From Prorocentrum cordatum (Eukaryota): a stretch of DNA of 64,000 nucleotides. The notes under the pieces are model-generated. The model did no database searches, was not told the origin of the DNA, and was given only the letters and a program-made list of their open reading frames with translations. How positions within the stretch are numbered: position 1 is the first letter of the stretch; every line of letters begins with the position of its first letter. The stretch lies in assembly GCA_963575745.1 (NCBI GenBank), contig CAUYUJ010000118.1, forward strand, positions 1 through 64,000, given 5' to 3'. A program made the position numbers and the translations under genes. This document shows, one piece after another, positions 29,167-64,000 of this stretch.

Positions 29167-29266
29167 GGTCGTCGTCGTCGCCGTCGTCGTCGTCCGTCGT
29201 CGTCAGCCGTCGTCCGTCGTCCGTCGTCCGTCGTCGTCGATCGTCGTCATCGTCGTCGTCGGCCAC

Positions 29267-29312
<46 letters not shown>

Positions 29313-30796: not shown

Positions 30797-30838
<42 letters not shown>

Positions 30839-30868
30839 GCCGTCGTCGTCGTCGTCGTCGTCGTCGTC

Positions 30869-30899
<31 letters not shown>

Positions 30900-31355: not shown

Positions 31356-31387
<32 letters not shown>

Positions 31388-31515
31388 CGTCGTCGCCGTG
31401 GTCGTCGTCGTCCGTCGTCCGACGTCCGTCGTTCGTCATCGTTGTCGTCGTCGTCGTCGTCGACGTCCAGGTCGTCGTCATCGTCCTCGTCGCCTGTCGT
31501 CCGTCGTCCAACGTC

Positions 31516-31546
<31 letters not shown>

Positions 31547-38058: not shown

Positions 38059-39330
38059 CCCACCCATCCTGTGGTGTTGAGTCCTCGTTTTAAAAAAACA
38101 TTACCCCGTGTTCCTTCCTCCCTTCCTTCCCCAACTCATCCTCCTCTCCTCCTCCTCTCCCTCCTCCTCTCCCTCCTCCTCCTCCTCCTCCTCCTCCTCC
38201 TCCTCCTTCCTCCTCCTCTTCCTCCTCCTCCTCCTCCTCCTCCTCTTCCTCCTCCTCCTCCTCCTCCTCCTCCTCCTCCTCCTCCTCCCCATCCTTCGTC
38301 CTCCCATCCTCCCGCTGCCCTTCCCCTCCTCCCACCCCTGCCTCTGCCCTCCGCAAGTCCTCATCATCATCATCATCATCATCATCAGCAGCAGCATCAT
38401 CAGCATCATCAGCATCATCATCAGCAACATCATCAGCATCATCAGCATCATCATCATCACTGACGCCATCATCGTTATCATCACCGCCATCTTCCACATC
38501 ATCACCACCGCAATCATCGGCATCGTGCCTCTGCTCTCCGCATGTGCACCATGTCGGCACACCCTTCACGCGTTTCGTGGCCACATAGGGAGCTCCACCA
38601 AAGGCCCCAGTGGCTGCGTTCACATGCGTCCCGCGCCCATTTCGGCACACACCCCACATGGTTCATGACCCCATACGGAGCTCCACCGAAGGCCCCAGTG
38701 GATCCGTTCACATGCGTCCCGCGCCCATTTCAGGACACCCCTCACACGGTTCGTGGCCCCATCGGGAACTCCACCGAAGGCCTCAGTGGCAACATTCACA
38801 TGCGTCCCATTTCGGAACACCCCTCACACTGTTCGTGGATAGAGAGCTCTACCGAAGGCCGCGGGTCACTTCGGCACACCCCTCACACGGTTCGTGGCCC
38901 CATAGGGAGCTCCACCGAAGGCCCCAGTGGGCCCCAGTGGCTGCGCTCACATGCGTCCCGCGCCCATTTCGGCACACACCTCACACAGTTCGTGGCCCAA
39001 CACGGAGCTCCACCGAAGGCCCCAGCGGCAGGGTCCGCATGGCGTACCCGCGCCCGATTCGGCAAACCCCTCACACGTCTCGTGGCCCAACACGGAGCTC
39101 CACTGAAGGCCCCAGCGGCAGAGCCTGCATGGCGCACCTGCACCCGATTCGGCACACCCCTCACACGGTTCGTGGCACCAAAGGGAGCTCCACCGAAGGC
39201 CCCAGCGGCAGGGCCCACATGGCGTACCCGCACCCGATTCGGCACACCCCTCGTTCCTCCCTTCCTGCTTCTTCTCACTTGCCTCGCGGTACCCGCAGTT
39301 TCATGTGGTTGGGCCCTTCGCCAGGATGAT
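38059..39330. mobile_element. Second copy of the 90-bp-array element
   Basis: Left end CCCACCCAT..GTGGTGTTGrGTCCTCGTTTT and right end TTGGGyCCTTCGCCAGGAT match 19135-20670; (CCT)/(CAT) tract, then array. Confidence 0.75.
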
Positions 39331-43270: not shown

Positions 43271-44695
43271 CGGCGGCAGAGGCGTAGACTTTAAATTTCT
43301 TATTGAAATGCCTGCAAGACAATTTGACTGGTTACATGCCCTTACTTCTATATAAACCTTGTGGCGCTTATTGTGGGGAGCATGATATGGGGAAATGGCA
43401 GATATTTGTTTCCAACACATCCTTTGTGAGCAAAACTGCGTTTTCCCTGACAAGTGTCCTCAGCTACGTAAAAGCATTGTGGGACCTGTTGTGGGAAATA
43501 GGGCATGGTGATATGGGAAAGAATTACTAATCAAAATGTCTCAGTGAGCATTTTACCTATTCATGGCTATGCTTATATGGAAGCATTGTGAGGCCTGTCG
43601 ATGGGAGTAGGCTGCGGGAATTTCACTGAGAATTACTTATGGAATTTCCTCAGCAAGAATTTGATTTCTCAGATTGCCTCACTTGTGTAGGAATCACTGT
43701 GGGGCCTGTCGTGCGGAGTAGGCTTTTGGATTATGGCGGGGATGTATCAGAGGGGATGTGTCAGAGGGGGCGTAGAAAAAGAGATGCAGCAAGGGGGGGT
43801 GAATCAGAGGCGGTGTCAGGCGAGGCGCGCAGGGCGTGAGAAGAGGAAAGGAAGCAAGGAAGGAAGAAAAGGAGAAAGGAAAAGGAAGTAAAAGTAAGGA
43901 GGGAAGGGGGAGGGAGAGGGGAAAGCCAGGGGAATTTGATGGGGAAGGGAAGCGTAGGCCGGGATGAGAATAGAAGGGGAGGAAACAAAGAAAGGAAAGA
44001 AGGAAGAGGATTCTTCATCAGACATCTACCAGCTCTTCAGGAAGTCGGGAATACTAAAAGTCTGTATGTTTCAAACTGTTTGACATACTTTGATGTCAGA
44101 CGCTGGTTCGTTTAGAAACAAACCTGAGCAATAAAGCAAGCATTAGACAATTTTTCGCATCCTTCCAATATGAAACGAAACCAACAAATTCAAAACTGAA
44201 TGAACATCCCCACTAGGAAGCACCTGGACCAATTACTCGGAAACCCATCAAGTGAAGGCAAGGAATGGCATGTATGATTACTACACTCTTCGCATATTTG
44301 GAACGAGCATCGGTCAACACAGTCGAGTTTACGTACGCAGGCGCACCATGGACGCTGAGCCTCGCACTCGACCTCTGATCGCCTGGGTCCGAAGGCAACT
44401 CCACATTTGTTGACCCAACTATGGTGTAGGGTATGAATGTCTGGATGATTCCCAATACAGAGCTTGCGATGATAAGCTTCTTACTTATTCTGCAGTAATT
44501 AGACACGTGGGCCAGCCCCGTAGTCATATGAGCATAGGGGCCTAAGCTTGGAAAGCGAAAAGTTCATGGCAATGTTTACGTAGCACAGGTTCCGCAGCAA
44601 AGAGCAAATATTGCTTTGCAAAGATTAGCAATTAGCAACTACCACGCTGCGAAGCTCTCATTGCAAAGCTTGCACAGCACAGATTGCATAGCAAA

Positions 44696-45828
44696 CTGGG
44701 AGCCGGCGGTATGCCGTCAATCTTGGTTACCGCCGGGAACTCGTAGAGTTTCCTTGCCACATACATGAACGGGATGCGGGCGCGGCAATCTCGCATCCCG
44801 CGCGCGCGGGGGTGCGGTTTCATGGGGAGGACGTGGGGGAGAAGAAGGAGTGAGGAGGAGAAGGAGGTGGAGGAGGCTGAGGAAGAGAAGGAGAAGGAGG
44901 AGAAAGCAGAAGGAGAAGGAGGGGGAGGAGGAAGAGAAGGATGACGAGCAGGAAAGGGATGGGTGGAGGGGAAAAAGGGGGGCGATGATGATGAGGAGGA
45001 GAAAAAGAAGGCCGAGGAGGAGAAGGAGGAATTCTATTCAGAAAAGCACATCATTTCTGGCAAAATATTCACAGTGCGAAAAGTTTTACAGTCGTAGCGA
45101 TGGTTGCGATCCGACTTCAGACGCCTCGATACCGTAGGCGAATGCACCTGGTTACCTTCAGTTTCGACAAGTGTTTTTTTTTATATTATTTTTTATTTTT
45201 TTTTCAGGCCCCTACCTACCGATCGTATGAAGTACGAAAGAACTATCATTATCCCTGAAAAATTAGCAAAGTACAAATAGCTGTTTCGTTGCAGCTCATG
45301 TAGCAGACCGAGTTCAGGCACCTAGATACTTGAACTAGCGCGCCTCTGGATTTTCTTTCAAGTGCTCTGCCGAACAGCACAGCCCTGTAGCTCATCTGCA
45401 GTTCTTTAAGAAAATATGCATCCCTAGCTCTGGTAGCAGACCGAGATACTTCAGACTAGCGCGCCTGATGATTCTAGATAGATTAGGTGTGCCTGTCAGC
45501 TCTGTAGCTCTTCTACAGCTCGGGTTAAGTTCAGAAAACCGACAGCACCTGCCAACAAAACACTCAACAACCGCTCCCGCCTGAGAGCTTTTTGACAGTA
45601 ATATGTACCCGACCGACATGATATCAAGATGGCGAGCAGAAATAAGATCGAATATGGGGGGGCAAACAATTAGAGCTCTAACGAATTGTCCAATTTCGAA
45701 AACATAATTTTCAGCCGACCAAAATTATGCCAAATTTCCGTTGAGATTTTTCGGGCCAACTAGCACCCCAGCGCGCCGGAATTACTCTTTAGCTTCGCCG
45801 CTTCGCTCTCAGGGAAGCTCTACAAGTC
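44696..45828 (-). mobile_element. Diverged stem-loop unit (Helitron/Helentron-like non-autonomous element)
   Basis: CTGGGAGCCGGCGGTA...TACCGCCGG hairpin, then ACTCGTAGAGTTTCC; inverted GGAAGCTCTACAAGT near 45813; partial 177-bp repeats inside. Confidence 0.55.
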
Positions 45829-46134
45829 AAATTGGACAGCACTGACTGCATAGCAAATATTACATAGCAAGGATTGCATCTACATAGCCTGTGAATCAGG
45901 ATTCCCGTAGTCAGCTCAGCCTTGGCACCTGAGGAGCTACCTTAAGTCTACGCACCTAAGCCAGCCCAGCCCACATAGCCGGTGCACCCCAGCCCACAAA
46001 GCCTGCGCATCAGCATTTCCCTAAATCCTACGTACCTAAGCCAACCCAACCCACATAGCCTGTGGCTCAGGACTGGGAGCCGGCGGTAAACCGTCAACCA
46101 GGTGTTTTGCGGTTTGCGGTCCGACCACAGGGCC

Positions 46135-46730
46135 CTACAAGGGCGGTCGGGTTGGTGCAGCCATCCCCTGTGGGCTGGATGTACCCTGAAAAACGTGATA
46201 CTCTTGAAGTATCTTGCAAGCAGAGCGGGCAATTCTCGAAGCGGCCTCAAGCTCACACTGAGTAACCGTCGCATCGGGAAGCAGGCCAAAAGCCTCCTCC
46301 GCCAACGGACGGGTAAACGTGTGCAGGCAATCACTAACCCCTTCCGCAGATTGCTCACTGATGAACTCACCGTCTAGCCACCATCCTCCCCCAGCACCTG
46401 CACTGCTAACGCCACCGTCGTACGCACCACGGATTGCGATCAATGTTTCAGTATTGTTTATATGTTGTTGAATGCTTCTGCACCTCGATTGTAATGGTAG
46501 ATGTCTGATTTCCCAAGTCAGTCGGTCGGCGCGGTCATTGCCTCCACGATAGTGATGACGCCACATGTCATACCCTGTGGCTGGGCCCTGCAGCTTAAAA
46601 TTTCGACAGGCGTCGTCTAACAGATCAATAACCTCCCCCACCTGCGATCGGTATATATTGTTGTTGCAATTTCACCTTCCCCTCATCCAGTTGGTTATCA
46701 GCATGGAGTCGCCCAACAGCTCCATCGCAA
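46135..46730 (-). pseudogene. RNase H domain, permuted motif order
   Basis: MELLGDS (GDS at 46713-05) ... HHYRGGNDRAD ... RGAYDGG..GAGGGW ... TVTQCELEAA; one in-frame TGA. Confidence 0.85.
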
Positions 46731-46866
46731 CTCCCACCTCGTCGCTCGAAGCGGACCTCATTTTCAAAGTTTGCTGCGAGGCGCCTGACAATACGATCAA
46801 GCGCCGCCTGTGTATACTGATTGTCCTCCTCCTCCTCCTCCTCTGTGTATCTGACCTCCCTCCTCC

Positions 46867-49800
46867 TTAAAGATAAAGCCCTCCGTCATATGTGAAATGC
46901 CCGCCGCCACACAGTCGGGCCGTAGCAAACTCGCGAAGACCACGTTCACTCCAGTCGAGATGGTGCCACCAGTTCACACCAGCAGCCTGCACAAATAGGA
47001 AGTCCCACGGCCTGTAGCCTGTAGGTAACCTCCTCCCTGTTAGTCTGGTTATCTCCGTCCTCCTCCCACTTGCAGTAATCATAGCCTCCCTCCTCTCCGT
47101 CCACTCCCCCAATCCATGCGGCATCGCAACACGTGAAACAACAAAGGGCCTTGACACGTCATCCGACACAGGCGGTGCTGGTGTCGGAGCCTCCCCAGGC
47201 CGGGTGGTCGAGAGCCTCTGTCGTTGGCCCCGCACCGTCTCACGGAAGATTCTCGCACGCTGACGCCGATTGGTATGTGCCTCCTCCCCCGACGCACGCG
47301 CTAACATAGGTGCACACGTATGCATACAGGCGAACGATGCCACATCCTTTGCCCAGTCAAACTGCTTTCTGAAAAATCTGTGGACCAATGATTGGAGGCC
47401 GCACCTAGCAAAGTGTTGGCGACCATAGCGCAGCCGCCTCTGAGTATACACAGTCCAATCCTCACTCGCCTTCTTACGAAGACCACCAATGATCGCCAGC
47501 AGTTGACCCTCCCACGCATATAACTTCTGAATAGTTCCCTCATCCGCCGTCATACCTTCACATGTATACAAAACAACGCACTGCAACCGTGCAATGTAAC
47601 GCATAAAACGATCACGCATAGGTAACTGTCTACAGCGATAGAACTGTACATCACACATCCACGCACGCCTGGCACGCTGTAAATGACAAAGTAGATCCCG
47701 ATGCTCACTCCAGTCATCAAAGAGTTCCACTCCCAGAGCCGACATCTGTCGAAGACGTGGCAGGACCAACTCCTCACCATACTCAGGGACCGACACACGA
47801 AGCTCGGTATCAGAACAGCGAGGCCAGCCTCCACACAAGAGGTATCCAAGCGATGAGGGTTTCCACCGCAGGCCCGCCTGAGCCAACGGCACCGTCAGCA
47901 TAGACATCATCTCCCGAAGTTCGTCCAGGGACCGTGCACATACATACAAGTTGTCCGCCCACAGAGCATGCGCAATCCTCCTCCTACCTCCTCTCAAGGA
48001 GGTCTCCAATTCATAACCATAGTCGTTCTCCTCCCACTGCCGTACCACCTTCTCCCAAAGATACACCGAGACAGCCTTGAACAAGAATGGGCTCTCCACT
48101 CCTCCCGTGCGGATACTCCTATCCCAAGACACCCAATCCGTCCACCGCACACCTTCAAAGGACATCTGACACACGGTCTCATGCATAGGCTCCAAGAGGG
48201 CAAATATGAGCTCCGAGGGGAACCCCAATGAAACCGGACTGTTATACGCCAACGTCAACGTCACATGGTCGAAGCACTGTAGTACGTCTGCACTCCCAAG
48301 ATATAATGATTCCCCTTTGCCCCAGAGACACGCGTGCTGTGAGAGCCTCTTTAGTACCGCCGTGATTTCACGTGGTTTCCTACCTGCTGCAAAGCCGAAC
48401 AAGCACGTATGAGGTCGGAGCTTTGTCAAATCTTCCTCCGCAGCTGTACCATTTGGACATAAGAGGTATGAGGCATATTGTTCTAGTGTCGTTGAGTTGG
48501 GTCATTTGGGGGCTCTTCGGGATCAGAGTGGCAAGGAATTTTCTCCAGCACTGCGGCGTGAGATTCTCCCGACAGGCCAGGCGCTGAAAGAAGTCACGCA
48601 CACGGCGCACACACGCCCAAGGAAGCAACTTGAGCATTTCGGGCGACACGTCATCGCATGACGCTGCTCCTCCCCTCTTGAGTCGTGCACGAGCTCGCAA
48701 CACAAGGGACATGCGAATGTCTAGCGTCCGATGCGAGGCCGCTGCTGCACACCTCGCCGTCTCCAACGTCTGTACACTAGCCCTGCGAGCCTCCTCGCAT
48801 TGGATAGTGGCACAAGCAAACCGTCCGATCTCCACCTCCCACTCCTCCAAGTCCTCAGATCTATGGACTGGCCGCCGACACAATCGCCGTATTGATGAAT
48901 TCGCCTTCACAAGTGGGTGCTCCCACCGCCTGAACGCACTGTGTCGTCACATCCTCCACTTCCTCCCACTCCTCCATGTCCTCCATCATAGTCTCCGTAC
49001 TGTCCGTGCTGTTACCCTCCTCCTCCACCACGGTCCTAAGCTGACGCGCCACACGAGGATGGGAACGGCTGACCAGCTCCCAGCCCTCCTCGGGCGTCGC
49101 GGCAGCAGACCTGACAGGAATTGTCCCGCATGTGGTGAAAGCAATCTCCGCCTCCCGAGCGTAAGCCTGAGGATCCTCTGGAGCCCAGTGGACCAAATTG
49201 GAGGCCCTCGTCGCCTTCGGCTTCTGCCTGCGTACACCCGTCGGAGCACATGGTAACGCGGCATGTAACAGAGCATGATCCGATACCGCAGTCAGCGCCG
49301 TCGCCCCCAGTGGTTGGATGAATTTAACCCCCACCTCCGACTGTGCACCGGGTAACCAATATAGTCCAAGACACTGGGAGCCCCAAGACCGGACAGGATC
49401 CAAGTAGGCCTCCTGGGTCCAAATGTGTTGGCCATCACAATGCTCCACCTCCCACAGAACTGAAGAAGCGCCTCCTTCATTGCCTCCCTCCTCCTCCAAC
49501 GAACACGTGAAGCCCCACCCGAGTAGACCCGAGTTGATTCCAGCAATCCCTCCCCCGTAAGTTGTAGACCGTTACAGCTCGTATCTGGCGACAGCTCCAC
49601 GTTGGCATCCGTGAGCAACACCACCTTCTTGGGCCTCCTAGGGTACCTGTGGAAATACTTCTCGAGGCCCTCATTCATATTATATATAATGTTCTGAAAC
49701 TTCTCATTCGTAATACCCTCAGCATTGGGCAAATAGCATGAAACAACCGTGACCGTCGTAAATCCTATGGCAACGTAACCTTTCCCTTTGAACGTAGCAA

Positions 49801-50038
49801 GGCGGTGCTTCCGCCAATTATCCTTATACAGGATGGCAACCTTGCGGGAGCTGTCAAAAATCGTGCGAATAGCACCTTCACCCGAACCTGACAGCTCAGA
49901 ACGATGATCCCAAAGATTTTGACACTCTTGTACCCCCAGGAGTGTCACATCCGCCCCTTTCATCGCACTAAGTATTGTGTGGATAGTAAGTTGTCCTCTC
50001 CGTCGTAGGTTCCACGAGCCTAGACGGACCTCTCGTCG
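46867..50038 (-). pseudogene. ORF2 APE + RT, frameshifted
   Basis: APE: GSWNL, GVQEC, YLP, TDAN, LDYI, SDH; RT: AASCDD, TRTICL, FGF, DVLQCFD, RTGGVESP, WADN, ALG. Confidence 0.9.
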
Positions 50039-51095
50039 TCACGGCGCTGATAGTCGCGCCTTGAGGCCTGCAATGTCCAAATTCGGCTCATATGATTTAA
50101 TCTCGTCCCGAATCGTCCATCCCTCCTGCGCATGCGGCCCTGGCTGAAATATCATGACAATCTGACCTGCATTCTGCGCCTCACTGGATGCACGCGCCCA
50201 CACATATGTTTGTCCCAGACCACTGCCCAGCACTGAGCGCATGATGGTTCCGTTCCTGCACACCTGAGCCCATACAGCATGACACTGGCCTGAAGCTTGA
50301 CCATGTACAATCTCCCATGGGGCGACCTCCACAGACACCCGAATATTGGCCGCCTCGGGCCACGGGAGTCTATTGATATCATCACTCGCAAGGGCTAGAT
50401 TAGATAACAGTGACCGTCTAAGTGCCCACAACTTCTGTCCTGGAGTACCTTTCTTGAAATAGATTCTCAAACGCCCATATCCGAAGTACTCCCTACCCGA
50501 GTTTGCGTTCGTCGTCGCCTCCTCGTCGATACAATTGCACCACTCTCCAGACTGAATGATGCGTTGTTTCATTGAGTTGAGCCGGGTCGTCAGGACATCC
50601 TGGGCCATCATCTGACGGGATCTCAACCCATGGTTGTTCCAATTAGTAACCCACCCCTTGCACTCAACAAAACTTGGCTCCCACTAAAAGTTGAAACGCC
50701 CTGGAGCTATGCCTGACCCCTAGTTTGAAGCCGCTGGCGCTCTAGTGGACGTCTCTGATGCCGTCCCGTCGCTGCCAACAATATATATATATATAAAGGA
50801 AAAAAACAAGAAAGGTCTCCAGATCAGCTTGCCTACGCGAGAGAGCCTGCATATCATGATTGAAAGATTTTCGGACGGCATCCACCTTACTGTCAACCGC
50901 TGTAATTGCCGTTTTGACCGTCTCGATTTTCCCGTCAACTGCTGTGAGAACGGCCGCCGTCACACTCTGCGTTTGTTGTGCCATCATTCTCTGAAGCTCA
51001 CTCAACAGATTTGCTGATCCCGGCTGCTCCTCCTCCCTCATCCGTTTACGTTCAGTCTCAGTCTCTGCCATCGCCACATCACTCGACCCCGCCAT
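50039..51095 (-). pseudogene. ORF1 (coiled coil + RRM-like), disrupted by a T/(TA)n run near 50780-50810
   Basis: Heptad segment VDGKIETVKTAITAVDSKVDAV; position upstream of APE. Confidence 0.65.
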
Positions 51096-51204
51096 TGCAG
51101 CTGATGGTGGGTAACCGAAACCACTCGACTCCACACTCGGAGGCAGCCTCCGACTTTCCCACGAAGGGCTGGGTTGTGAATCCCACGCCGTGATGGACGT
51201 GTAC

Positions 51205-51640
51205 AACAGGCAATGAAACGCGTACTCTGACAATCAATAAATACGAACTCCAAACAGTCAATGAAAGTGTACTCCGACAGTCAGTGGATGAGTACTCCCA
51301 CCGTCAATGAAGTGTACTCCGACAATCAATGAGTCTGTACTCCCACAATCAATGAATGCGTACTCCGACAATCAATGAAGCGTGTACTGCAACAGTCAAT
51401 GAAGTGTGTACTCCAACAAACAATGAAAGAATACAAAGTGCAGCCTCTCAACGAAGACGTACCCCGACAGTCAGTGAATGTGTACTCCGACCACAATGAA
51501 TGCAAACTCCGACAATCAATGATGTGTACTTCGACAATCAATGAACGTGCACACCGTCAATCAATGAAGCGTGTACTCTGACAATCAATGAAGTGTGTGC
51601 TCTGACAATCAATGAATCTGCTCGCCGACAATCAATGAGC
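51205..51640. repeat. ~23-bp tandem monomers in the LINE 5' UTR
   Basis: GTGTACTCCGACAATCAATGAA-like unit repeated well over a dozen times. Confidence 0.9.
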
Positions 51641-51769
51641 ACGTACGATACACAGGCCGTGTACGGTAATGAGAACCAAACAAAGCAGCACGGCACAATG
51701 CCGCTCGAGACGAGAGCCCCAAACGGGAGCCCCCAGCCGCCAGACCCCCGAGGAGGGAGGCAACCAGGT

Positions 51770-51888
51770 TTTTTGCGGTTTGCGGTCCGACCAGGAGGCC
51801 CTACAAGGACGGTCGGGTTGGTGCAGCCACACCCTGTGGGTTGGATGTACCCTGAAAAACGTGATACTCATTGAGTATCTTGCAAGCA
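51770..51888 (-). mobile_element. Short 3' fragment of the same LINE family in tandem
   Basis: Closely matches 46104-46222 and follows the duplicated CAACCAGGT. Confidence 0.85.
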
Positions 51889-52290
51889 ATGAATTATCAA
51901 TTAACAATTATGAATCTCTTGTCATCCTCGAACGAGGCAGAGAAAAGTAAGACCTCATGCAATGAATTACCAATTATCAGTTGTAAATCCGAACCCGGGA
52001 CCCTCGCAGAGCTCTGGAGAGACCAGATCAGTTCCCAGATAACAGGAGAAGTTGATATAAGTCTGAAAACTGAAGGAATGTTTTTTTCGGGTTTTACAGA
52101 ACGTTGGTTCCTCCTAGTCTTTTAATCCGAAAAATGGAGCTAGAGCCCTGGAAATTTCACCGTCGAATGCGCCATGATTCACTACGGAGAATAAAAATCT
52201 GGATTCCCGAAGCGAATTTCAAAATCTCTCACAATCTCCGATAAACCGACCCAAGTGTCACACATTGTCCGCCCGGGCCGGCTGGGTCAA

Positions 52291-53755
52291 CTGGGCGCCG
52301 GCGGTAAACCGTCAACCTTTCTTACCGCCGGGGGACTCGTAGAGCTTCCTGACCATATATTATGTCCAAAGAATTAGCAGAGAACGAAGAGTTTTTCAGC
52401 CCGAGCGCTGATAGCAGACTGATCTCAGGCGTCTAGTGATATCCCATTGCTGTGCTGAACAGTTCTATAGCTCATCTGCAGCGTGTAGAAATACCATTAG
52501 GGAGAAAATAGCAGAGTACAAATCCGTGTTTGGCGTCTGCGCTCACAGACCAAAACCAAGCGTCTAGATGCTTCGCGCCTCATGATGTCCTTCTGATTTT
52601 TCGGCCGAAGAGCTCTCGAGCTGCTCTGCAGCTCGAGTTCAGTGAAGAAATTCACCATCATTTGGGAAAAAATGTCCGTCGAATACGAATAGTTTTGTGA
52701 ATCTAGCTCGGGTAGCAGACCGAGTTCAGACCGCTCGATGCAACAGACGAACACGCCCAATGCTTCTGCATCAGTTTCTGTGCGTACCAGCTCTGTAGCT
52801 CTCCTACAGCCCGAATTCAATACAGAAAATAGACAACATCTGTCAAGATGACTCCAAGAATACGAATAGTTTTGCGGACCTAGCCCGAGTAGCAGACCCA
52901 GTTCAGACCTCTGGATGCAACAGACGAACGGGCCAGATGATTCCGAATCAGTTTCTGTGCGCATCAGCTCTGTAGCTCTCCTAAAGCCCGAGTTACGTGC
53001 GAAAACGGACAGCACCCCTCAAGATGACTCGAACGATACGAATAGCTTCGCGGACCTAGCTCGAGTAGCAGACCGAGTTCAGACCTCTGGATGCAACAGA
53101 CGAACGCGCCTGATCATTCTGCATCGGTTTCTGTGCGCATCAACTCTGTAGCTCTCCTAGAGCTCGAGTTAAGTACAGAAAACCGACAGTCCCTGTCGAG
53201 ATGACCCGAGCGATACGAATAGTTTTGCGGACCTAGCTCGGGTGGCAGACCGATTTCAGACCTCTGCATGCGACGGCGGACGCGCCTGATGTCTCCGAAT
53301 CGGTTTCTGCAATTACCAGCCCTGTAGCCCCCCTACAGCCCGAGTTAAGTACAGAAAACCAACAGCACCTCTCAAGATGACTCGAACAATACGAATAGTT
53401 TCGCGGACCTAGCTCGGGCAGCAGACCGAGCTCAGACCTCTGGTTGCAACAGACGAACGCGCCTGATGATTCTGAATCGGTTTCTGTAAGTATCAGCTCT
53501 GTAGCTCTCCTACAGCTCGAGTTAAGTACAAAAAACCGACAACGCATGTCAAGATGACCCCAAACGGCCGATCCCGCCCGTGTGCTTTTTGGCAGTAATA
53601 TCTACCCGATCGGGCTGAGATTAAGACGGCGAGCGGGAATAATATCGAATATCACGGGAAAAATACTAGAGCTCAAACGAATGGTTGAATTTCGAGAACA
53701 AAATTTTCAACCGACCAAAAGTCAGCAAAAGGTCCGTCGAGATTTTTCTTGCCAG
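52291..53755 (-). mobile_element. Stem-loop unit with ~177-bp internal tandem repeats
   Basis: Hairpin 52298-52331; CAGACCTCTG marker at 52904, 53080, 53257, 53433; homologous to units at 55954, 57305, 60738. Confidence 0.75.
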
Positions 53756-53783
53756 CTGGGCGCCGGCGGTAAACCGTCAACCT

Positions 53784-55953
53784 CTCTTTTTTTTTGCGGT
53801 TTGCGGTCCGCCACTAGAATCCGAATCCGAATCGGCGGAGCAGTGCAACTGAGCCCCCACCATCTTAGGCCGCAGCAGAGCGCACGCCACCTTAGCAGCA
53901 GCTCTCGTCAGGGCAGCGCAGGCAGCTAGTTCACAGCAGGTTACCGTGCTACCAGGAGGCAAGCTCATCGCCTCCTCGGCCACATCGTGCCAATGGAAGC
54001 TGTGCGAGCTGGTGCAGGAGGAAGAGGAGGAGGAGGAGGAGGAGGAGATGGGAAAATCAACCTGCACGCTGGAACCCCTACCTACAACGCCAATCTGAAG
54101 CCACCACCCACCTCCACATCCTTCATTACTGACACCCCCATCGAATGCACCACGGAGAGCAGTCTTACGAGTACTGAGGAACTTATCATATGCAAACCAG
54201 CGAGTAATAGTTTGGCCACCTCTGGCCTCCCACGACAATTATCCGCACGCTCATTACCCTCACGAAAGAAATGCTTATACAGATTCTGTCCCGATGCAGG
54301 TGAGGTCAGTCCCCATCCAGACAGCATCGATACCGTATTTTGTAGTGTTCCCACCAGTCGTACATACTGCTTGTTGCGAATCTGCCACTCACCACACATC
54401 CAGTTTACAACAGTCTTACTATCTCCCAAGATCTCCATCACAAGACGCTCAATATTCTCACACCTCCACTCCGTTTCATTCTCATAATTAGCGGCAATAC
54501 GTTTGCTCATCCTCTCATTTATCTCTCTCTCCTCCTCCTCCTCCGCCTTCACATGTCTCACACCAGGCGGCCTGGGTAGAACAAACAAGTCGAACAAATG
54601 TTGCATGCCAATCACAGTCAGCAAATGCTTGCAGTATTTCTCACGGGACCCAGCGGAACTGTCGAACGAGAGGTACCACTCGCAACCAAAGAAATCGCAC
54701 AAGCACCAGTCCCACACAGTATGTCCACGGGGAGGGCCGCCCATGTTCATGCGTGTGAGCTGCTTCCTATCTTTTACAGGCAATGCTAGAATACATATGT
54801 CACGATGTTCCGTCCACTTCCCCCTTCCATGTAACATGGCCAGCCTAGATATCATCCATTCCCGTGACATGTCCGACTCCTCAGGTATGGCAGGCTGATC
54901 ATCTGGTGTCCGCCGGCGACAGCCACTCGACATCTGGGATATCTGAGATACATGATATGATTGAGAAGACGCCGCCGCCGCCATCGCCCGAGTTTTCCCC
55001 TGACGCCGATTTGGTACCGTCTCCCCCTCCTCCTCCTCTGTGTGTGTTGTGTATCTCCTCATACGAATACTTGCAGCAACTGAGACATCCTTAGCCCAAT
55101 CCCAACAACGAAATATCCATATCTGCACCGCACTTCGGAATCCAAGCCCAGCAAAACTCTGCCGTCCCGCTTTGTATCGCCTACGTTGAAACTCAGACCA
55201 GCCTTCAGTTCTCCGCTTGCGTATACCTGACATTATAGCTAGACATCTGCCTTCAAAATAGTGAACAGCAGCAATGGTAGAATAGTCGGGCGTTCTGCCC
55301 TCACAGTTGAATAATAATGCAGCAATCACTTTAGCTTGATAGCGAGTAAATCTTTCAGCCAAGTCAATCCCAGAGCAGCGGTAATACGCGATTTCCCCAA
55401 AGAACATCCTCTGGGCTTTCTGGAGCATGGCCTCTGAGTCCGAGTGGTCCTTCCAGGTCTCCTCCAGAGTGGCTCCCAGGATCTCAAACGCTTGAACACG
55501 CGGTAGGACCACTTCTCGGGTCCCAAGAGCGGCGTCACTAGACGGCACCAGCACACGGATATCCTGCTCAGGGGACGGCGGGATGCCAGGCGGCGCACCA
55601 AAGTAAATATACATCAAAGATTTCGGCTTCCAGGTCATTCCTGCACTCATCAGCGGGATACTCATGTCACGCACCATCAACTCAAGGTCAGTGCGGGTCC
55701 TCGCATACAACAAAAGATTATCTGCCCAGAAACTGTGGGTCATACGCTCACCGTTGAACATGCGCTCATCATTTTCCAATTTGATACCGTACTGCGTTTC
55801 TTGCCTCCATCTGTCGATGACATCTCTCCAGAGTACAATAGAAACTGCCAGAAAAATCATTGGTCCCTCTACTCCTCCCGTTCGAATAGATTTGTCCCAA
55901 TAGACCGCTGACGATGCCTCGATTCCCTCGAAGCTGGCCACGCACTGATTATT
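53784..55953 (-). mobile_element. 5'-truncated RT-RNase H LINE inserted in the hairpin loop
   Basis: RTGGVEGP, FWADN, EILGDS, FREGNERAD, then frameshift to RGAFDGG...TVTCCELAA; the two hairpin halves flank it with ACCT on both sides. Confidence 0.92.
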
Positions 55954-58900
55954 ACCTTTCTTACCGCCGGGGGACTGGTAGAGCTTCCTGACCATATATG
56001 ATGCCCAAAGAATTAGCAGAGAACGAAGAGTTTTCCAGCCCGAGCGCTGATAGCAGACTGATCTCAGGCGTCTAGTGATATCCCATTGCTGTGCTGAACA
56101 GTTCTATAGCTCATCTGCAGCGTGTTTGGCGTCTGCGCTCACAACAGACCCAAACCAAGCGTCTAGATGCGTCGCGCCTCATGATGTCCTTCTGATTTTT
56201 CGGCCGAAGCTCTCTCGAGCTGCTCTGCAGCTCGAGTTCAGCGAAGAAATTCACCATCATTTGGAAAAAAATTGTCGGTCGAATACGAACAGTTTTGTGA
56301 ACCTAGCTCGGGTAGCAGACCGAGTTCAGACCGCTCGATGCAACAGACGAACGCTCGCAATGCTTCTGCATCCGTTTCTGTGCGCACCAGCTCTGTAGCT
56401 CTCCTACAGCCCGAATTCAATTCAGAAAATGGACAACATCTGTCAAGATGACTCGAAGAATACGAATAGTTTTGCGAACCTAGCCCGAGTAGCAGACCCA
56501 GCTCAGACCTCTGGATGCAACAGACGAACGGGCCTGATGATTCCGAATCAGTTTCTGTGCGTATGAGCTCTGTAGCTCTCCTACAGCCCGAGTTACGTGC
56601 GAAAACGGACAGCACCTCTCAAGATGACTCGAATGATACGAATAGCTTCGCGGACCTAGCTCGAGTAGCAGGCCGAGTTCAGACCTCTGGATGCGACAGA
56701 CAAACGCGCCTGATTATTATGCATCGGTTGCTGTAAGCATCAGCTCTGTAGCTCCCCTAGAGCTCGAGTTAAGTACAGAAAACCGACAGTCCCTGTCGAG
56801 ATGACCCGAGCGATACGAATAGTTTTGCGGACCTAGCTCGGGTAGCAGACCGAATCAGACCTCTGCATGCGACAGGCGGACGCGCCTGATGTCTCCGAAT
56901 CGGTTTCTGCAATTACCAGCCCTGTAGCCCCCTACAGCCCAAGTTAAGTACAGAAAACCGACAGCACCTCTCAAGATGACTCTAACAATACGAATAGCTT
57001 CGCGGACCTAGCTCGGGCAGTAGACCGAGTTCAGACCTCTGGATGCAACAGACGAACGCGCCTGATGATTCTGAATCGGTTTCTGTAAGTATCAGCTCTT
57101 GTAGCTCTCCTACAGCTCGAGTTAATTACAAAAAACGACAACGCATGTCAAGATGACCCCAAACGGCCGATCCCGCCCGTGTGCTTTTTGGCAGTAATAT
57201 CTACCCGATCGAGCTGAGATTAAGACGGCGAGCGGGAATAAGATCGAATATCACGGGAAAAAATACTAGAGCTCAAACGAATGGTTGAATTTCGAAAACA
57301 AAATTGGGCGCCGGCGGTAAACGGGGGGACTCGTAGAGCTTCCTGACCATATATTATGTGCGAAGAATTAGCAGAGAACCAATAGTTTTTCAGCCCGAGC
57401 GCTGATAGCCGACTGATCTCAGGCGTCTAGATACAATTCGCTATTGCCCCTGGTAGTTCCCTTCGCATTGCTGTGCTGAACAGTTCTACAGCTCATCTGC
57501 AGCGTGTAGAACCAAGAAAAACAGTACCATTAGGGAGAAAGTAATAGAGTACGAATCGTGTTTGGCGTCTGCCCTCACAACAGACCCAAACCAAGCGTCT
57601 AGTGGCTTCGCGCCTCATGATCTCCTTCTAATTTTTCGGCCCAAAAGCTCTCGAGCTGCTCTGCAGCTCGAGCTCAGTGAAGAAATTCACCACCATTTGG
57701 AAAAAATATCGGTCGAATACGCACAGCTTCGCGAACCTAGCTCGGGTAGCAGACCGAGTTCAGACCTCTCGGTGCAACAGACGAACGCACCTGATGCTTC
57801 TGGATCGGTTTCTGTGCGCATCAGCTCTGTAGCTCTCCTACAGCCCGAGTTCAATACAGAAAATGGACAACACCTCTCAAGATGACCGGAAGAATACGAA
57901 TAGTTTCGCGAACCGAGTTCAGACCTCTGGATGCAACAGACGATACCGGCCTGATGATTCCAAATCAGATTCTGTGCGCATCAGCTCTGTAGCTCTCCTA
58001 AAGCCCGAGTTACGTGCAAAAACCGACAGCACCTCTCAAGATGACTCGAACGATACGACTAGTTTCGCAGACCTAGCTCGAGTAGCAGACCGAGTTCAGA
58101 CCTCTGGATGCGACAGACGAACGCGCCTGATTATTCTGCATCGGTTTCTGTGGGTACCAGCTCTGTAGCTCCACTCGAGCTCGAGTTAAGTACAGAAAAC
58201 CGACAGTCCCTGTCACGATGACTCGAGCGATACGAATATTTCCGCGAACCTGCTCGAGTAGCAGACTGAGTTCAGACCTCTGCATGCAAAAGGCGGACGC
58301 GCCTGATGTATCTGAATCAGTCTGTAATTACCAGCCCTGTAGCCACCCAACAGCCCGAACTAAGTACAGAAAACCCACAGCACCTCTCAAGATGACTCGA
58401 ACGACACGAATAGTTTCGCGGACCTAGCTCAAGCAGCGGACCGAGTTCAGATCTCTGGATGCAACATACGAACGCGCCTGATGATTCTGAATCGAGTACG
58501 TGTGCGTACCAGCTCTGTAGCTCCCCTAGAGCTCGAGTTAAGTACAGAAAACCGACGACGCGCGTGTCAAGATGACCCCGAACGGCCGATCCCGCCCGTG
58601 TGCTTTTTGGCAGCAATATCTACCCGATCGACCTGAGATTAAGACGGCGAGCGGGAATAAGATCGAATATCACAGGAAAAAATACTAAGGAGCTCTAACG
58701 AATTGATGAATTTCAATAACAAAATTTTCAACCAACCAAAAGTCAGCAAAAGGTCCGTCGAGATGTTTCTTGCCAACTAGCTCTCCAGCGCCCCGGAATT
58801 ACTCTTAAGCTTCCAGCAACTAGATAAGGGAAGCTCTACGAGTTATTTTCAACCGACCAGAAGTCATCAAAAGGTCCGTCGAGATTTTTCTTGCCAACTA

Positions 58901-59100
58901 GCTCTCCAGCGCCCCGGAATTACTCTTAAGCTTCCAGCAATTAGCTAGGGGAAGCTCTACGAGTTACTAGCTCTCCAGCGCCCCGGAATTACTCTTAAGC
59001 TTCCAGCAACTAGCTACGGGAAGCTCTACGAGTTACTAGCTGCGCCCCGCGCCGGAATTCCTCTAGCTCATCGACGCCGAAGAGCTCTACGAGGTACTAC
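55954..59100 (-). mobile_element. Two further tandem stem-loop units (junction near 57305, hairpin partly deleted there)
   Basis: Collinear with 52291-53755; right end carries repeated GAAGCTCTACGAGTT, the inverted copy of the left-end ACTCGTAGAGCTTC. Confidence 0.75.
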
Positions 59101-59208
59101 AGGTGCGGAAAATACCGGTTCTCAAAACGAATCTTCAAATCTCTCAGAAAGTTCGCCCAACCGGCCCTAAGTTCACACTTGAAACCGGCGGTAAACCGTC
59201 AACCAGGT

Positions 59209-59712
59209 TTTTTGAGTTTGAGTCAGGGCGCGGACAGCTGTGACAGCTGAGCCCTAAGACTCCCAAGCGGAGCACAGGGTAGCTAGAGAAGGCACCTCTT
59301 ATCATCACACTGCCGAGCCACTGAGGCATAGGCATCGGAATAGGATGCAGGAACAAGGAAAAGGATGCAGCACAACATGTGAGAATGCAAAGGTGTTGGA
59401 ACAGGTTAGAGAATGGTGTAAGAGCTGGTTGAAACGCTACCCAAAACGTGTTCCACGGCCATATAAAGCCGTTTTACTGCATTGATCAAAGCAACAGCCG
59501 ATCAGCAGCATATCCTTCCACAGACCGCCCTCCAACGAAGAAACCGTGGAGGCCGACTAGTTCATGTTTACGTTGTATATCACAGGCGAAGCAGAGTAAA
59601 AAGTAAAGTTGAAGTCTTGAACTCGTAGACCTCTTTTCTTGCCAAGCGCTCCTCGGAAGTGAAGGAAGCTTAAGCCAGAGCCAAACAACTCTAAAAAATC
59701 GGCCCCATACAA
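59209..59712 (-). mobile_element. Unrelated ~500-bp insert at the same hairpin-loop site, probably a LINE 3' fragment
   Basis: Follows CCGGCGGTAAACCGTCAACCAGGT; minus-strand tail CTCAAACTCAAAAA; only faint RNase H-like remnant; right boundary approximate. Confidence 0.55.
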
Positions 59713-62218
59713 ATATTTTTGCGGACCTAGCTCGAGTAGCAGACACTGTTCAGAGCTCTAGATGCTTCAGCCGAACGCCCTTGATCATTCTGGATCCGCT
59801 TCTGTGCGCATCAGCTCTGTAGCTGTGCTACAGCTCGAGTTAAGTGCAGAATACCGACAGCGCCTCTAAAGAGACCTTCAGAAATACGAATAGTGTTGTG
59901 GACCTAGCTCGAGTAGCAGAACGAGTTCAGGCCTCTCGATGCAACAGACGACGGCGCCCGGTAATACTGAATCGGTTTATGTGCGCACCAGCTCTGTAGC
60001 TACTCTAAATCTTGAGTTGAGTACAGAAAACCGACATCACTGGTCAAACTGGCTCAAAGAATACAACAAGTTTTACGGACCTAGCTCGAGTAGCAGACCG
60101 AGCTCAGACCTCTCGATGCAGCAGAAGAACGCGCCTGATGATTCTGAATCAGTTTCTGTGGGTATCAGCTCTGTAGCTCTCCGAAATCTCGAGTTAAGTA
60201 CAGAAAATCGTGAACGCGTGTCAAGATGACTCGGAACACAGTCGGTTCCTCCAAGTGTGTTGATAGTAATACTGCACCTACGGACCTGAGAATTTGACTG
60301 GCAGACGCGGCATAATCCACTACAGGTGCGAAAAATCTGCTTCTCTAAATGAATTGTCAACTTGGTAGCGTCCGAAACCCTGAGAGCAAAGACAACTGGG
60401 AGCCGGCGGTAAACCGTCAACCAGGTTACCGCCGGGAGCCTCGTAGAGCTCTTTTCTCGCACGGCGCTGCTTGGAACACGTGGGGGGGAGCTCTCTCATA
60501 CGCGAGCTAAAAACTCGAAAAAATATGTTTTTAAAAATAACCCCCAAGGACGGTTCCGCCAAGTGTTTTGATAGTTGTACTGTAGCTGCGGACCTGAGAA
60601 TTTCACTGGTAGACGCGGCACAACCCACTACAAGTGCGAAAAAAGACCAGTTCTCAAAACGAATGTTCAAATCTCTCACAAAGTTCGTCCAACCAACCCA
60701 AAGTTCGCACATTGTCCGTCGGGGCCGGGTCGGCTAACTGGGCGCCGGCGGTAAACCGTCAACCTTTCTTAGCGCCGGGGGACTCGTAGAGCTTCCTGAC
60801 CATATATTATGTCCAAAGAATTTGAAGAGAACGAATAGTTTTTCAGCCCGAGCGCTGATAGCTGACTGATCTCAGGCGTCTAAGGATATCCCATTGCTGT
60901 GCTGAACAGTTCTATAGCTCATCTGCAGCGTGTAGGAAAAAATCAAGGAGAAAATACCAGAGTACAAATCCGTGTTTGGCGTCTGCGCTCACAACAGACC
61001 CAAACCAAGCGTCTAGATGCTTCGCGCCTCACGATGTCCTTCTGAATTTTCGGCCGAAGAGCTCTCGAGCTGCTCTGCAGCTCGAGATCAGTAAAGAAAT
61101 TCACCATCATTTGGAAAAAATGGTCGGTCAAATACGAATAGTTTTGTGAACCTAGCTCGGGTAGCAGACCGAGTTCAGACCTCTCGATGCAACAGACGAA
61201 CGCTGCCAATGCTTCTGCATCACTTTCTGTGCGCACCAGCTCTGTAGCTCTCCTACAGCCCGAATTCAATACAGAAAATGGACAACATCTGTCAAGATGA
61301 CTCGGAAAATACGAACAGTTTTGCGGACCTAGCCCGAGTAGCAGACCCAATTCAGACCTCTAGATGCAACAGACGAGCGGGCCTGATGATTCTGAATCAG
61401 TTTCTGTGCGCATCAGCTCTGTAGCTGTGCTACAGCCCGAGTTACGTGCCAAAACGAACAGCACCTCTCAAGATGACTCGAACGAGACGAATAGTTTCGC
61501 TCACCTAGCTCGAGTAGCAGACCGAGTTCAGACCTCTTGATGCAATAGACGGACGCGCCTGATTATTCTGCATCGGTTTCTGTGCGCATCAGCTCTGTAG
61601 CTCCCCTAGAGCTCGAGTTAAGTACAGAAAACCAACAGTCCCTGTCGATGACCGAGCGATACGAATAGTTTTGGGGACCTAGCTCGAGTAGCAAACCGAT
61701 TTCAGACCTCTGCATGCGACAGGCGGACGCGCCTGATGTCTCGGAATCGGTTCCTGCAATTACCAGCCCTGTAGCCTCCCTACAGCCCGAGTTAAGTCCA
61801 CAGAAAACCGACAGCACCTCTCAGATGACTCGAGCAATACGAATAGTTTCGCGGATCTAGCTCGGGCAGCAGACGGAGTTCAGACCTCTAGATGCAACAG
61901 ACGAACGCGCCTGATGATTTTCTGTAAGTATCAGCTCTGTAGCTCTCCTACAGCTCGAGTTAAGTACAAAAAACCGACAACGCCTGTCAAGATGACTCGA
62001 AACGGCCAAATCCCGCCGCAACGCTTTGTGGCAGTAAAAGGTACCCGATCGGGCTGAGATCAAGACGGCGAGCGGGAATAAGATCGAATATGGTGGGAAA
62101 AAATACTACAGGTCCAACGAATGGTTCAATTTCGAAAACAAAATTTTCAACCGACCAAAAGTCACCAAAAGGTCCATCGAGATTTTTCTTGCCAACTAGC
62201 TCTCCACCGCCCCGGAAC
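59713..62218 (-). mobile_element. Partial and complete stem-loop units with empty hairpins at 60403-35 and 60745-78
   Basis: Same 177-bp repeats and termini. Confidence 0.75.
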
Positions 62219-62244
62219 TGGCGCCGGCGGTGAACCGTCAACCT

Positions 62245-64000
62245 GGTCTGCGGTCTGCGGGGCCCGATTCGAGCCCCCTTAGGGGGCAGGGCCAGCGGTA
62301 GGATTACCTACAGGCAACCTAAGCACTAACAGCGGAGCTGTGCGATATACAAGTCAGCGTAGCTGTGCATATATGATACAACAGCGTAGCTGCACAGGAA
62401 TATACACACATCAAGAAACAGTGGGGCTACGCATGTATCTTACAACAGCGGAGCTATGCAGATATTATACACAAACAGTCACCTGCCAAGTTGTACGTGT
62501 ATACACATCTCGGCAATGCCATTGAGAAGAGAATGTGCAGCTGCCAACTCAGCCTGTGTGATCGTGCAATGGCTAGGGATCATGAAACCTCTGCGGCCAA
62601 CTCCAGGGTGCCATCCACCCTGCACAAGTCCAGGGGGAAGCTGGTGAGGAGGAAGAGAGGGAACAAGATAAACATCAATAACCCAGCCACACGAGGTGCC
62701 ACGCTCACACCGCCCACCGTCAAAAGCTCCTCTAAGTGCACGAACAATATAATGACCCGATCTAATATGATAAAGAGTGTTATGATTCCAACGAACATCA
62801 GAAGTTACTTTACCCTCACGTGCAAGATGTGTCTCATAGTCCGCCTCATCGTTGCCCTCCCTATACACCCATTTCCACATATCCCTTCCCACTTCAGCCG
62901 TGACAAGATGATGGTCCTCACTCATTCTGTGGAGGCGGTTCTGCATACCCTTGATCGTGCGGCGGTATACTTCATTATGACAGCGATATCTTCCATTAAG
63001 CCAGCGCACAACACACTGGCTATCCCCACGGAGCTCCAAGCCATATCAACCCCCTTCCCCACGCCAAGTGGTTTCATCATCATTTATCGCGGCCAGTCGT
63101 TTCGCCACCCGTTCATTTTCCCGTCGTTGCTGCTCCTCAGACTTCTCCTCCCCCTTCTCCTCCTGCTTGAACTCACCCGTGAAGGGATCCCGAAGAAGGC
63201 AGAACTCGAGAAGATCATCCAAGTCCAGGGCGGCCAGGGTACCCACCAGGAAAGAACGCCAGCCAGTTTCATGCCAGACCATCGTGCGATCCCAATGAAC
63301 CCCGCGCGTGTGCTCGAAGACCTCGAACCAAGGCCTGAGTCCCGTCAAGACTCGATGACGACAGGTTCTAGTAAACCTTCGGCCCCCAGGGAGAGCTCTA
63401 ACATGTACGTCGCGCTGCTCAGTCCACTCCCCCGACGCGTGCATCATCGTCAAGGCGCTCTGCATACTGGCAGTGGGCAATCCTCCTTCCTCCTCCCGTG
63501 CATAGGTACGGCGTACCCGCTTACGAACAGGCTCATGTACATGTTGTGAATCGTGATGCTCATATGCCGTGTTCTCCGATATACGTCTGCGAACTGATCT
63601 ACTTTCCAAGGAAGATGCGCTCTGTGCCTTTCTCCTACACGAACTGTTGAGCTGTCTGGCATTCGGGGTAGGCGAGGGAACCGATAACTCCAAGAAACGC
63701 TGCGAACCACCAAAAATATCAGGATCTCGTGGCTCATGATAAAGAATGCCCTGACTGAGTGCGTCCTCATCCACCCGACTATGTTCCTCATGGATTGTGC
63801 TCACAACATGTTTGGCGAAGAGCCACTGGCGATGAAGGGCGAGCTGGACCATCGAAGGCTTACGGGCCCACTTCAATAAGCGACGGCCACCCTTAATCCT
63901 CCTGCCCCAGTACTCTCCCCAGGACTCCGTGATCTTCTTTTTGAGACGTCTCATGGTGGACAAGAAGTTGCCTTCAGCTGCATGTATCTGTTGGAGACTA
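62245..64000 (-). mobile_element. 3' part of a third divergent LINE of the RNase H family, running out of the window
   Basis: Begins at the hairpin loop GAACCGTCAACCT; tail CCGCAGACCGCAGA; post-RT region 63046-63963 shares motifs with the other two copies (GEWTE.R, KRLAA...E..W). Confidence 0.88.
62479..63039 (-). CDS. RNase H domain, permuted motif order, uninterrupted
   Basis: ELRGDS ... WVYREGNDEAD ... RGAFDGG...SCGW ... TITQAELAAA. Confidence 0.88.
   Translation of the reverse strand: MELRGDSQCVVRWLNGRYRCHNEVYRRTIKGMQNRLHRMSEDHHLVTAEVGRDMWKWVYREGNDEADYETHLAREGKVTSDVRWNHNTLYHIRSGHYIVRALRGAFDGGRCERGTSCGWVIDVYLVPSLPPHQLPPGLVQGGWHPGVGRRGFMIPSHCTITQAELAAAHSLLNGIAEMCIHVQLGR

Follow-up and report, generated by a model that had tools for sequence, protein, structure and literature searches.

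Diverged LINEs share one insertion point at the centre of a palindromic module in an abundant repeat of Prorocentrum cordatum

What does a retrotransposon recognize when it returns again and again to one position in another repeat? The question is raised by a 64,000-nucleotide stretch of the Prorocentrum cordatum assembly (GCA_963575745.1, contig CAUYUJ010000118.1, positions 1 to 64,000, forward strand; hereafter the window), in which long interspersed nuclear elements (LINEs) of different sequence occupy the same short palindromic module. Read directly, the stretch from 44.7 to 62.3 kb holds nine copies of this module. Of these, four are intact without an insert, one carries a 20-bp deletion and four are filled by a retroelement on the minus strand, whose 3′ end meets the loop at one identical nucleotide in 4/4 cases. 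We consider it quite probable that a lineage of LINEs with an apurinic/apyrimidinic endonuclease (APE) has the dyad centre of this module as its specific target, in one fixed orientation, and that it inserts there by ordinary target-primed reverse transcription with a sequence-specific APE endonuclease and an inherited specificity; the module belongs to a very abundant tandem or composite repeat.

The arms of the module are CCGGCGGTAA and TTACCGCCGG, and its loop contains ACCGTCAACC. The nonamer CCGTCAACC has seven matches in the window, all on the plus strand, against 0.95 expected (0/100 shuffles reach 7), and the arm CCGGCGGTAA, at up to one mismatch, has 15 against 4.2 expected, its complement being enriched likewise. 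In the AGG/TGG form of the module AAACC pairs with GGTT(T/A), so that the stem reaches about 12 pairs, interrupted by one bulge, and closes on an 8-nt loop, GTCAACC(A/T); here the insertion point falls within the 3′ strand of the stem, 3 nt from the loop, and the 9 bp duplicated on insertion run from mid-loop to that point. The TTTC form has a 10-bp stem and a 14-nt loop. An initial annotation, made from the letters alone, had located these sites and described the hairpin, and both hold on reading, except that the AGG/TGG stem is longer than the ten pairs it gave and that a ninth site, at 57311–57322, was missing from its list. The modules, inserts and adjoining host copies are as follows.

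44703–44736, plus strand: empty hairpin, a variant whose left arm ends in T and whose loop is GCCGTCAATCTTGG (DNA fold −11.4 kcal/mol; arm matches).
44739–45827, plus strand: short copy of the host repeat bounded by the inverted 15-mers ACTCGTAGAGTTTCC and GGAAGCTCTACAAGT (motif at 44739, plus, and 45813, minus; 45423–45827 resembles unit ends).
46080–46103, plus strand: left half of a filled hairpin, with arm, loop and AGGT (46095–46103, CAACCAGGT, is the left duplication copy).
46104–51760, minus strand: LINE L1, full coding span with frameshifts (profile matches, Pfam, direct reading); by profile, APE at 49295–50038, linker at 48383–48946, reverse transcriptase (RT) at 46870–48501 and RNase H-like domain at 46138–46671.
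51761–51769, plus strand: right copy of the 9-bp duplication of L1 (CAACCAGGT), in register with 46095–46103.
51770–51888, minus strand: L1′, a 119-bp 5′-truncated 3′ fragment of an L1-like LINE (91% identity to the L1 3′ end, 46095–46222; tblastn match).
52298–52331, plus strand: empty hairpin with a 10-bp stem and loop ACCGTCAACCTTTC, heading host unit A (nonamer and arm matches, fold).
52332–53762, plus strand: host unit A (about 1.45 kb), starting GGGACTCGTAGAGCTTCC, with five 177-bp subrepeats at 52681–53563.
53763–53788, plus strand: left half of a filled hairpin (53780–53788, ACCTCTCTT, is the left duplication copy).
53789–55953, minus strand: LINE L2, 5′-truncated inside the RT (profile positions 611–1190), with an A-run tail (36% identity to L1 over 436 aa).
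55954–55970, plus strand: right duplication copy ACCTTTCTT (8/9 identical) and right arm TTACCGCCGG (55961–55970; arm match, direct reading).
57311–57322, plus strand: deletion-form hairpin, CCGGCGGTAAAC joined straight to GGGGGGACTCG (left arm alone matched).
59185–59207, plus strand: left half of a filled hairpin (nonamer and arm matches; the element begins at about 59208).
59208–59619, minus strand: L3, a non-coding retroelement-like insert (direct reading).
60403–60435, plus strand: empty hairpin of the AGG form, 12-bp stem with one bulge and 8-nt loop (matches, folds; RNA fold z −2.9).
60745–60778, plus strand: empty hairpin of the TTTC form with one arm mismatch, heading host unit D (matches, fold).
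62224–62247, plus strand: left half of a filled hairpin, with arm CCGGCGGTGA and loop ...TGGT (nonamer and arm matches).
62248–64000, minus strand: LINE L4, extending beyond the end of the window (RNase H-like domain at 62482–63045, C-terminal part of the RT at 63049–63999; 26–29% identity to L1 and L2).

Does the half-hairpin that abuts each insert belong to the target or to the element? L1 is flanked by CAACCAGGT at 46095–46103 and again at 51761–51769, and L2 by ACCTCTCTT (53780–53788) and ACCTTTCTT (55954–55962), each pair being a 9-bp duplication inside the module. The two arms stand on opposite sides of L2, and the right one runs on into host unit B (55961–55970 onward); both hairpin halves thus flank the element placed by the initial annotation at 53784–55953, with the left half at 53763–53788 and the right arm at 55961–55970. 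At the L4 site, contigs of two sequencing runs show the empty form and pass on to the right arm (33 contigs in run X3, 9 in run X4). The duplications, the two halves around L2 and the empty modules together identify the half-hairpin as target, and the possibility that had been raised against the original proposal, that it was the 3′ end of the LINE itself, is not borne out. From the duplications it further follows that one cut falls at the loop's 3′ base, following GGT (or TCTT), and that the second lies in the loop itself, about 9 bp upstream.

Are the inserts separate arrivals? The proteins of L1, L2 and L4 share 26–36% pairwise identity, and no nucleotide alignment of at least 200 bp at E ≤1e-10 joins any of the three, which marks them as separate events by different families and agrees with the earlier claim of different sequences at one site in one orientation. 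L1′ is an older insertion at the identical point, now downstream of L1, so that this target has taken two insertions, a pattern seen with other site-specific LINEs too; a fifth, tandem fragment at 51770 in a duplicated target had been proposed, and CAACCAGGT does precede it at 51761–51769. All insertions of this kind in the window (5/5: L1, L1′, L2, L3 and L4) occupy one module position in one orientation, on the minus strand with the 3′ end toward the loop, and neither tblastn nor the profile described below found a copy of the LINE clade away from the module in the 64 kb; the sequence that site specificity leads one to expect within 15 nt past the LINE 3′ end is GGTTGACGG. By our arithmetic a random hit has a chance of about 7e-4 per event (9 sites, a window of about 3 nt, one orientation, 20,000 × 2 positions), and four or five independent hits are not chance. 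An unrelated LINE at 23466–26492 on the minus strand, with a 1009-aa open frame at 23463–26492 and strong Pfam matches (RVT_1 1.8e-36, endonuclease 9e-11), does not lie at such a module.

The ends of the inserts carry the marks of target-primed reverse transcription, namely defined 3′ tails, 5′ truncation (L2, L1′), 9-bp duplications (L1, L2) and no long terminal repeats. The tail of L1 (46104–46125) consists of the heptamer ACCGCAA ACCGCAA followed by AACA, and that of L1′ has ACCGCAA twice. L2 (53789–53812) ends in a duplicated ACCGCAA and an A-run, preceded on the plus strand by 53763–53788 and then the T-run. L3 (59208–59225) has ACTCAA ACTCAA and an A-run; L4 (62248–62262) has GACCGCA GACCGCA GA without an A-run, unlike all other inserts. 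One sequencing-run contig extends 342 nt past the truncation point of L2, and a 1564-nt contig spans 62220–63783 in L4. The L3 site has lost the target's right arm, with host sequence restarting at AACTCGTAGA (59620); L3 itself has no protein or LINE-profile match. In the 5′ region of L1, at 51206–51638, a 23-bp unit, ACAGTCAATGAATGTGTACTCCG, is repeated in tandem about 18 times.

To what lineage do these proteins belong? A search with 602 matches at E ≤0.001 supplied the relatives, 16 of them full-length, from which we built a LINE profile. Its closest solved relative is human L1 ORF2p (E 7e-37, endonuclease and RT, profile positions 4–683); it also matches exonuclease III/APE (E about 1e-10, positions 3–236), R2 proteins (E about 1e-30) and RNase H (E 1.9e-11), and its consensus holds the APE motifs QE, GDxN, IDYI and SDHxPV. 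The L1 open reading frame (ORF) at 49295–50038 matches profile positions 4–211 (E 5e-27). The RT of L1, L2 and L4 is matched in each case, and L1 alone carries every domain. Because of these profile matches and the APE motifs in the consensus, the inserted coding elements are, by sequence, APE-type LINEs, as the initial annotation had proposed. Pfam scores are weak (RVT_1 20–34 bits; APE endonuclease E 0.0024 at best, in one copy), a word-indexed protein search with the RT ORF gave no match at E ≤0.001, a protein-cluster search returned generic RT clusters only, with no useful taxon, and single-sequence searches of the PDB found nothing where the profile search succeeded. In the family the sequence of RT motif C is WADN, whose A and D are invariant or almost invariant. 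The RNase H-like motifs at the C-terminus are arranged as D..W, RxxNxxADxL, DGG and AE, in that order (46138–46671, 53780–54238 and 62482–63045, minus strand), and only the second half of solved RNase H chains (chain residues about 70–137) matches, at profile positions 1027–1106. The label of a permuted RNase H, already attached to these elements, would fit at the level of motifs; we found no report of such a domain in LINEs in the open-access literature searched.

What is the repeat that carries the target? Each module heads a unit of about 1.45 kb (52332–53762, 55971–57310, 57329–59095 and 60779–62223), and the units are 84–92% alike and hold 176/177-bp subrepeats. The motif ACTCGTAGAGCTTCC directly follows the right arm, and two units carry its reverse complement at their far end (45813; 58829, 58950, 59019). 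Contigs of all four runs contain joints from the far-end motif to the start of the next module (e.g., 58844 to 62217 and 59095 to 60395), where the unit-end motif GGAAGCTCTACGAGT meets the ACTCGTAGAGCTTCC of the next unit in a palindrome longer than the hairpin; the LINE target is therefore, in the canonical array, the middle of a longer and imperfect inter-unit palindrome. Summed contig depth in run X1, which is not copy number, lies between 10^4 and 10^5 in host bins, at about 30–110 for L1, 800–1300 for L2 and 300–370 for L4, and the ranking is the same in the other three runs. The host repeat is far more abundant than the LINEs, in line with the earlier claim that the target sits in another repeat. 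The sequencing runs that contain the sequence come from coded organisms and from marine, freshwater and estuary metagenomes, and no RNA run is listed among them.

We found no ORF family, coding capacity, Rfam match or tRNA match in the host repeat. Considered as an element with terminal inverted repeats, it shows 15-bp inverted motifs at 44739/45813 and 57329/58829, with the hairpin outside the left motif; neither a flanking duplication nor a transposase was seen. The module may be the terminal stem-loop of a transposon, as had been proposed in similar terms; the host has the inverted 15-bp end motifs, but no duplication, coding capacity or class was found for it. Helitrons begin with 5′ TC, end in 3′ CTRR, carry a hairpin 10–12 nt upstream of that end and insert between A and T. 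The host does not fit this definition: no CTRR follows the hairpin at a fixed distance on either strand, and conservation continues through CTCGTAGAGC, so that the resemblance is limited to head-to-tail arrays and central tandem repeats. A 5′-truncating retroposon is unsupported in a second organism, represented by the contigs L011, L013, C84 and C99 introduced below, where the sequence upstream of the module is constant. As for the module, Rfam gave no match at E up to 1 in 44000–64000, and Rfam and tRNA scans of the window and related loci gave nothing meaningful that would make it a known small-RNA gene or ribozyme.

Some further observations concern the form of the module and its surroundings. 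At 57311–57322 precisely the loop and right arm (20 bp) are gone, which palindrome slippage or repair of an aborted insertion could explain. The hairpin flanks often carry a short pair resembling direct repeats, ACTCGAAG or GTCGAG upstream and ACTCGTAGAG downstream in the modules with CCGG-type arms (contigs L011, L013 and C99, introduced below), and ACTGGGAG upstream versus ACTCGTAG downstream in the window modules. A very small palindromic insertion into the end motif of the host unit could be the origin of the hairpin.

Is the hairpin itself maintained? The 20-nt left half of the module occurs at three loci in genome contigs, two of them real, in a marine Nitrospinota metagenome-assembled genome (MAG), and one a chance match in a Clostridia MAG. 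The Nitrospinota MAG has 27 pattern matches on five contigs, and four of its contigs (L011, L013, C84 and C99 of G001; 41–45% GC) hold 30 modules, 29 complete and one without the right arm. These four contigs are evidently eukaryotic repeat DNA and likely a binning contamination. None of their modules (0/30) contains a LINE, and the LINE profile has no match in the whole MAG. On the minus strand of C99, at about 642, a module stops after ...CAACCTGGTTT and gives way to unrelated AT-rich sequence, the break lying about where LINEs insert.

We aligned 33 copies, namely the four empty modules of the window and the 29 complete ones of the MAG contigs, leaving out the four filled modules, the deleted site, the copy without a right arm and two chance-like matches (window 37684, contig C58). 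Conservation of the loop GTCAACC is 90% or more, while pair 5–35 of the stem is GC in 15 copies and CG in 8, and pair 6–34 is AU in 15, GC in 7 and CG in 2. Paired cells amount to 84.6%, versus 25–55% with the partner slid by 1–3 columns, a conservative figure in that three window rows with a longer loop are out of register and were counted as unpaired. Double changes number 21 versus 10.5 ± 2.5 in shuffles (0/500 as high), with the caveat that kinship can beat shuffles without structure and that the changes fall mainly between two arm types, which makes for few independent events. Judged from this alignment, the hairpin is a maintained feature of the host repeat.

How, then, would the LINEs arrive? 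Under the reading we prefer, the element's endonuclease would nick the plus strand just 3′ of the loop, after ...CAACC(A/T)GGT or ...CAACCTYTCTT. Reverse transcription, primed by the exposed 3′-OH, would start on the short tandem-heptamer or A-rich tail of the LINE RNA. A cut in the opposite strand, about 9 bp away and inside the loop, would leave a 9-bp duplication reaching from mid-loop into the stem, and 5′ truncation and small target deletions would follow, as in other LINEs. We infer the order of the nicks, the identity of the nicking enzyme with the element's own endonuclease and the descent of the specificity from a common ancestor of the families. The role of the target would be the usual one of a multicopy, dispensable landing site. 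Insertion might also disable the host element or let the LINE travel with it, as the initial annotation proposed.

Several points weigh against this reading. The evidence for specificity comes from one 64-kb window, and contig depths, which are not copy number, suggest that only a small share of modules is filled genome-wide, so that the window is possibly an unrepresentative cluster. L3 is placed among the LINEs by its tail alone, and we infer its nature from that. The 5′ junctions are visible for L1 and L2 only, as L4 leaves the window and L3 and L1′ are without a right arm. The copies are broken, with several frameshifts in L1 and a stop in L4. A 19-nt LINE tail pattern matched 10 loci in metagenome contigs, all by chance and none in this LINE, and viral contigs gave no match to the tail pattern (nor any to the target pattern).

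The LINE machinery might instead recognize the extruded hairpin or cruciform, and not the duplex sequence, nicking in or beside the single-stranded loop. A loop that is conserved across the 33 copies while stem pairs switch by compensation would suit such homing, as would the position of the site at the centre of a longer palindrome (GGAAGCTCTACGAGT meeting ACTCGTAGAGCTTCC) and the precedent of diversity-generating retroelements (DGRs), which need a target with a free-sequence stem and a sequence-specific loop according to PMC3240598. The covariation, however, constrains the host repeat and says nothing on how the LINE finds its target; moreover, the filled sites all share one arm type, and the second organism, with other stems, has no LINE. 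R1 and TRAS, which are APE-type site-specific LINEs, read duplex sequence. On balance we regard structure-specific homing as possible but unlikely. Spelled out, it would have the LINE ribonucleoprotein read the extruded hairpin through the conserved 7–8-nt loop on a free-sequence stem and cut both strands in or beside the loop, with the heptamer tail perhaps sharing the binding surface, a model that we find rather improbable. The L1/L2 unit ACCGCAA does resemble the loop-side target ACCGTCAA, and the L2 tail also carries GGCGG like the arm; when LINE tail and flank are folded as RNA, the L1 and L2 tails pair with the half-hairpin, though not significantly (z −0.2 to −1.1). This resemblance between tail and target may be coincidence or target mimicry.

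Another source of the nick would be an enzyme of the host repeat that cleaves its own conserved loop, the LINEs using the existing 3′-OH independently of their endonuclease. Nicking enzymes of rolling-circle elements use just such a conserved loop on a stem, which here covaries, and very different LINE families do use the identical nucleotide. But we found no such enzyme or coding capacity in the host repeat, regular 9-bp duplications and strict orientation suit a LINE endonuclease that cuts both strands, the APE domain is conserved in the family and the unrelated LINE in the window ignores the site; a foreign nick is accordingly very unlikely in our view.

Still less credible is that the half-hairpin (GGTTGACGGTTTACCGCCGG) is the 3′ end of the LINE, shared as a LINE/SINE-type tail (SINE, short interspersed nuclear element) or carried by 3′ transduction, with the host units as non-autonomous partners. 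In LINE polarity the host module does stand at the 3′ side of the unit, the joint with the next module varies in position among units A, B and D, as 5′ truncation would have it, and the predicted fold lets the tails of L1 and L2 pair with the half-hairpin beside them. Against this, duplications inside the module flank L1 and L2, the 5′ end of L2 has the other half, continuous with unit B, and an A-run separates the LINE from the half-hairpin; there are many more empty modules than LINEs, the z-scores of the folds lack significance and the sequence upstream of the module is constant in the second organism. Finally, although the host is a tandem array that clearly duplicates, a single insertion spread by array duplication or gene conversion can be dismissed, since the inserts differ in sequence, length, tail and protein, a divergence that excludes duplication of one insertion, and mere coincidence falls with the chance per event given above.

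The window appears to be made almost wholly of repeats. An AT-rich low-complexity tract lies downstream of the unrelated LINE, at 22300–23250. A 6.6-kb degenerate (GTC)n array at 29168–35776, of about 2100 units with 75% matches, accounts for the spurious long ORFs of that region and for its extreme AT skew. Arrays of a GC-rich tandem repeat of about 90 bp occupy 19263–20435 and 38549–39252, both with GGCACACCCCTCACACG, and a 73-bp repeat near the start of the window (1732–2431) ends in the related GGCACCCCTCACGC.

Site-specific LINEs are natural models for programmable, RNA-templated gene insertion, and to our knowledge few APE-type target specificities have been described. The use of one target by at least three deeply diverged families implies long co-existence with a satellite-like landing pad. 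Their protein family lies far from Pfam models, with WADN in place of the usual xADD and RNase H motifs that appear permuted. The target, a compact palindrome of 33–34 bp with a conserved loop and a covarying stem, offers a small substrate for asking whether a eukaryotic LINE reads DNA structure; should the hairpin reading be true, structure-specific homing would here be seen for the first time in a eukaryotic LINE, as a counterpart of the hairpin-dependent targets of DGRs and class C group II introns.

Among known systems the nearest analogy is Tx1L of Xenopus, an APE-type LINE that inserts at one sequence in the DNA transposon Tx1D, itself endowed with inverted ends and internal tandem repeats. 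Both cases combine a fixed target in a more abundant repeat, oriented insertions and a composite element. They differ in that the LINEs of the window target the dyad centre of a conserved hairpin whose stem covaries, a site common to at least three protein families, and in that the RT has WADN and the RNase H-like motifs a permuted order. The R1 and R2 elements of arthropod ribosomal DNA join their target precisely at the 3′ end and variably at the 5′ end, occur in tandem and leave small duplications or deletions of the target. As in their case, deeply diverged lineages retain one exact multicopy target, a general statement made in PMC4640811, which also describes target-specific non-LTR elements, counts transposons among LINE targets and names the Tx1 and R1 clades as the APE-type specific ones. 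Unlike the R1/R2 target, the one described here is not an RNA gene (no Rfam match), and R2 has a restriction-like endonuclease. Human L1 is not site-specific, lacks an RNase H and has the motif FADD; the present elements align with its ORF2p over endonuclease and RT and depart from it in site specificity, the RNase H-like domain and WADN. Class C group II introns are bacterial retroelements with a DNA stem-loop at the target. They and DGRs resemble the present case in a stem-loop target with target-primed reverse transcription beside it, and any dependence on structure here would hold only by analogy; both are unrelated prokaryotic enzymes that integrate next to the hairpin, not in it. For the DGR target, PMC3240598 states that the structure of the stem matters and its sequence does not, whereas the loop is sequence-dependent. 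In the open-access literature searched we found no report of a LINE that targets a hairpin, palindrome or cruciform. Set beside these systems, what is new here is the hairpin target at the palindrome centre of a satellite-like repeat, its sharing by elements at 26–36% protein identity, and the protein lineage itself.

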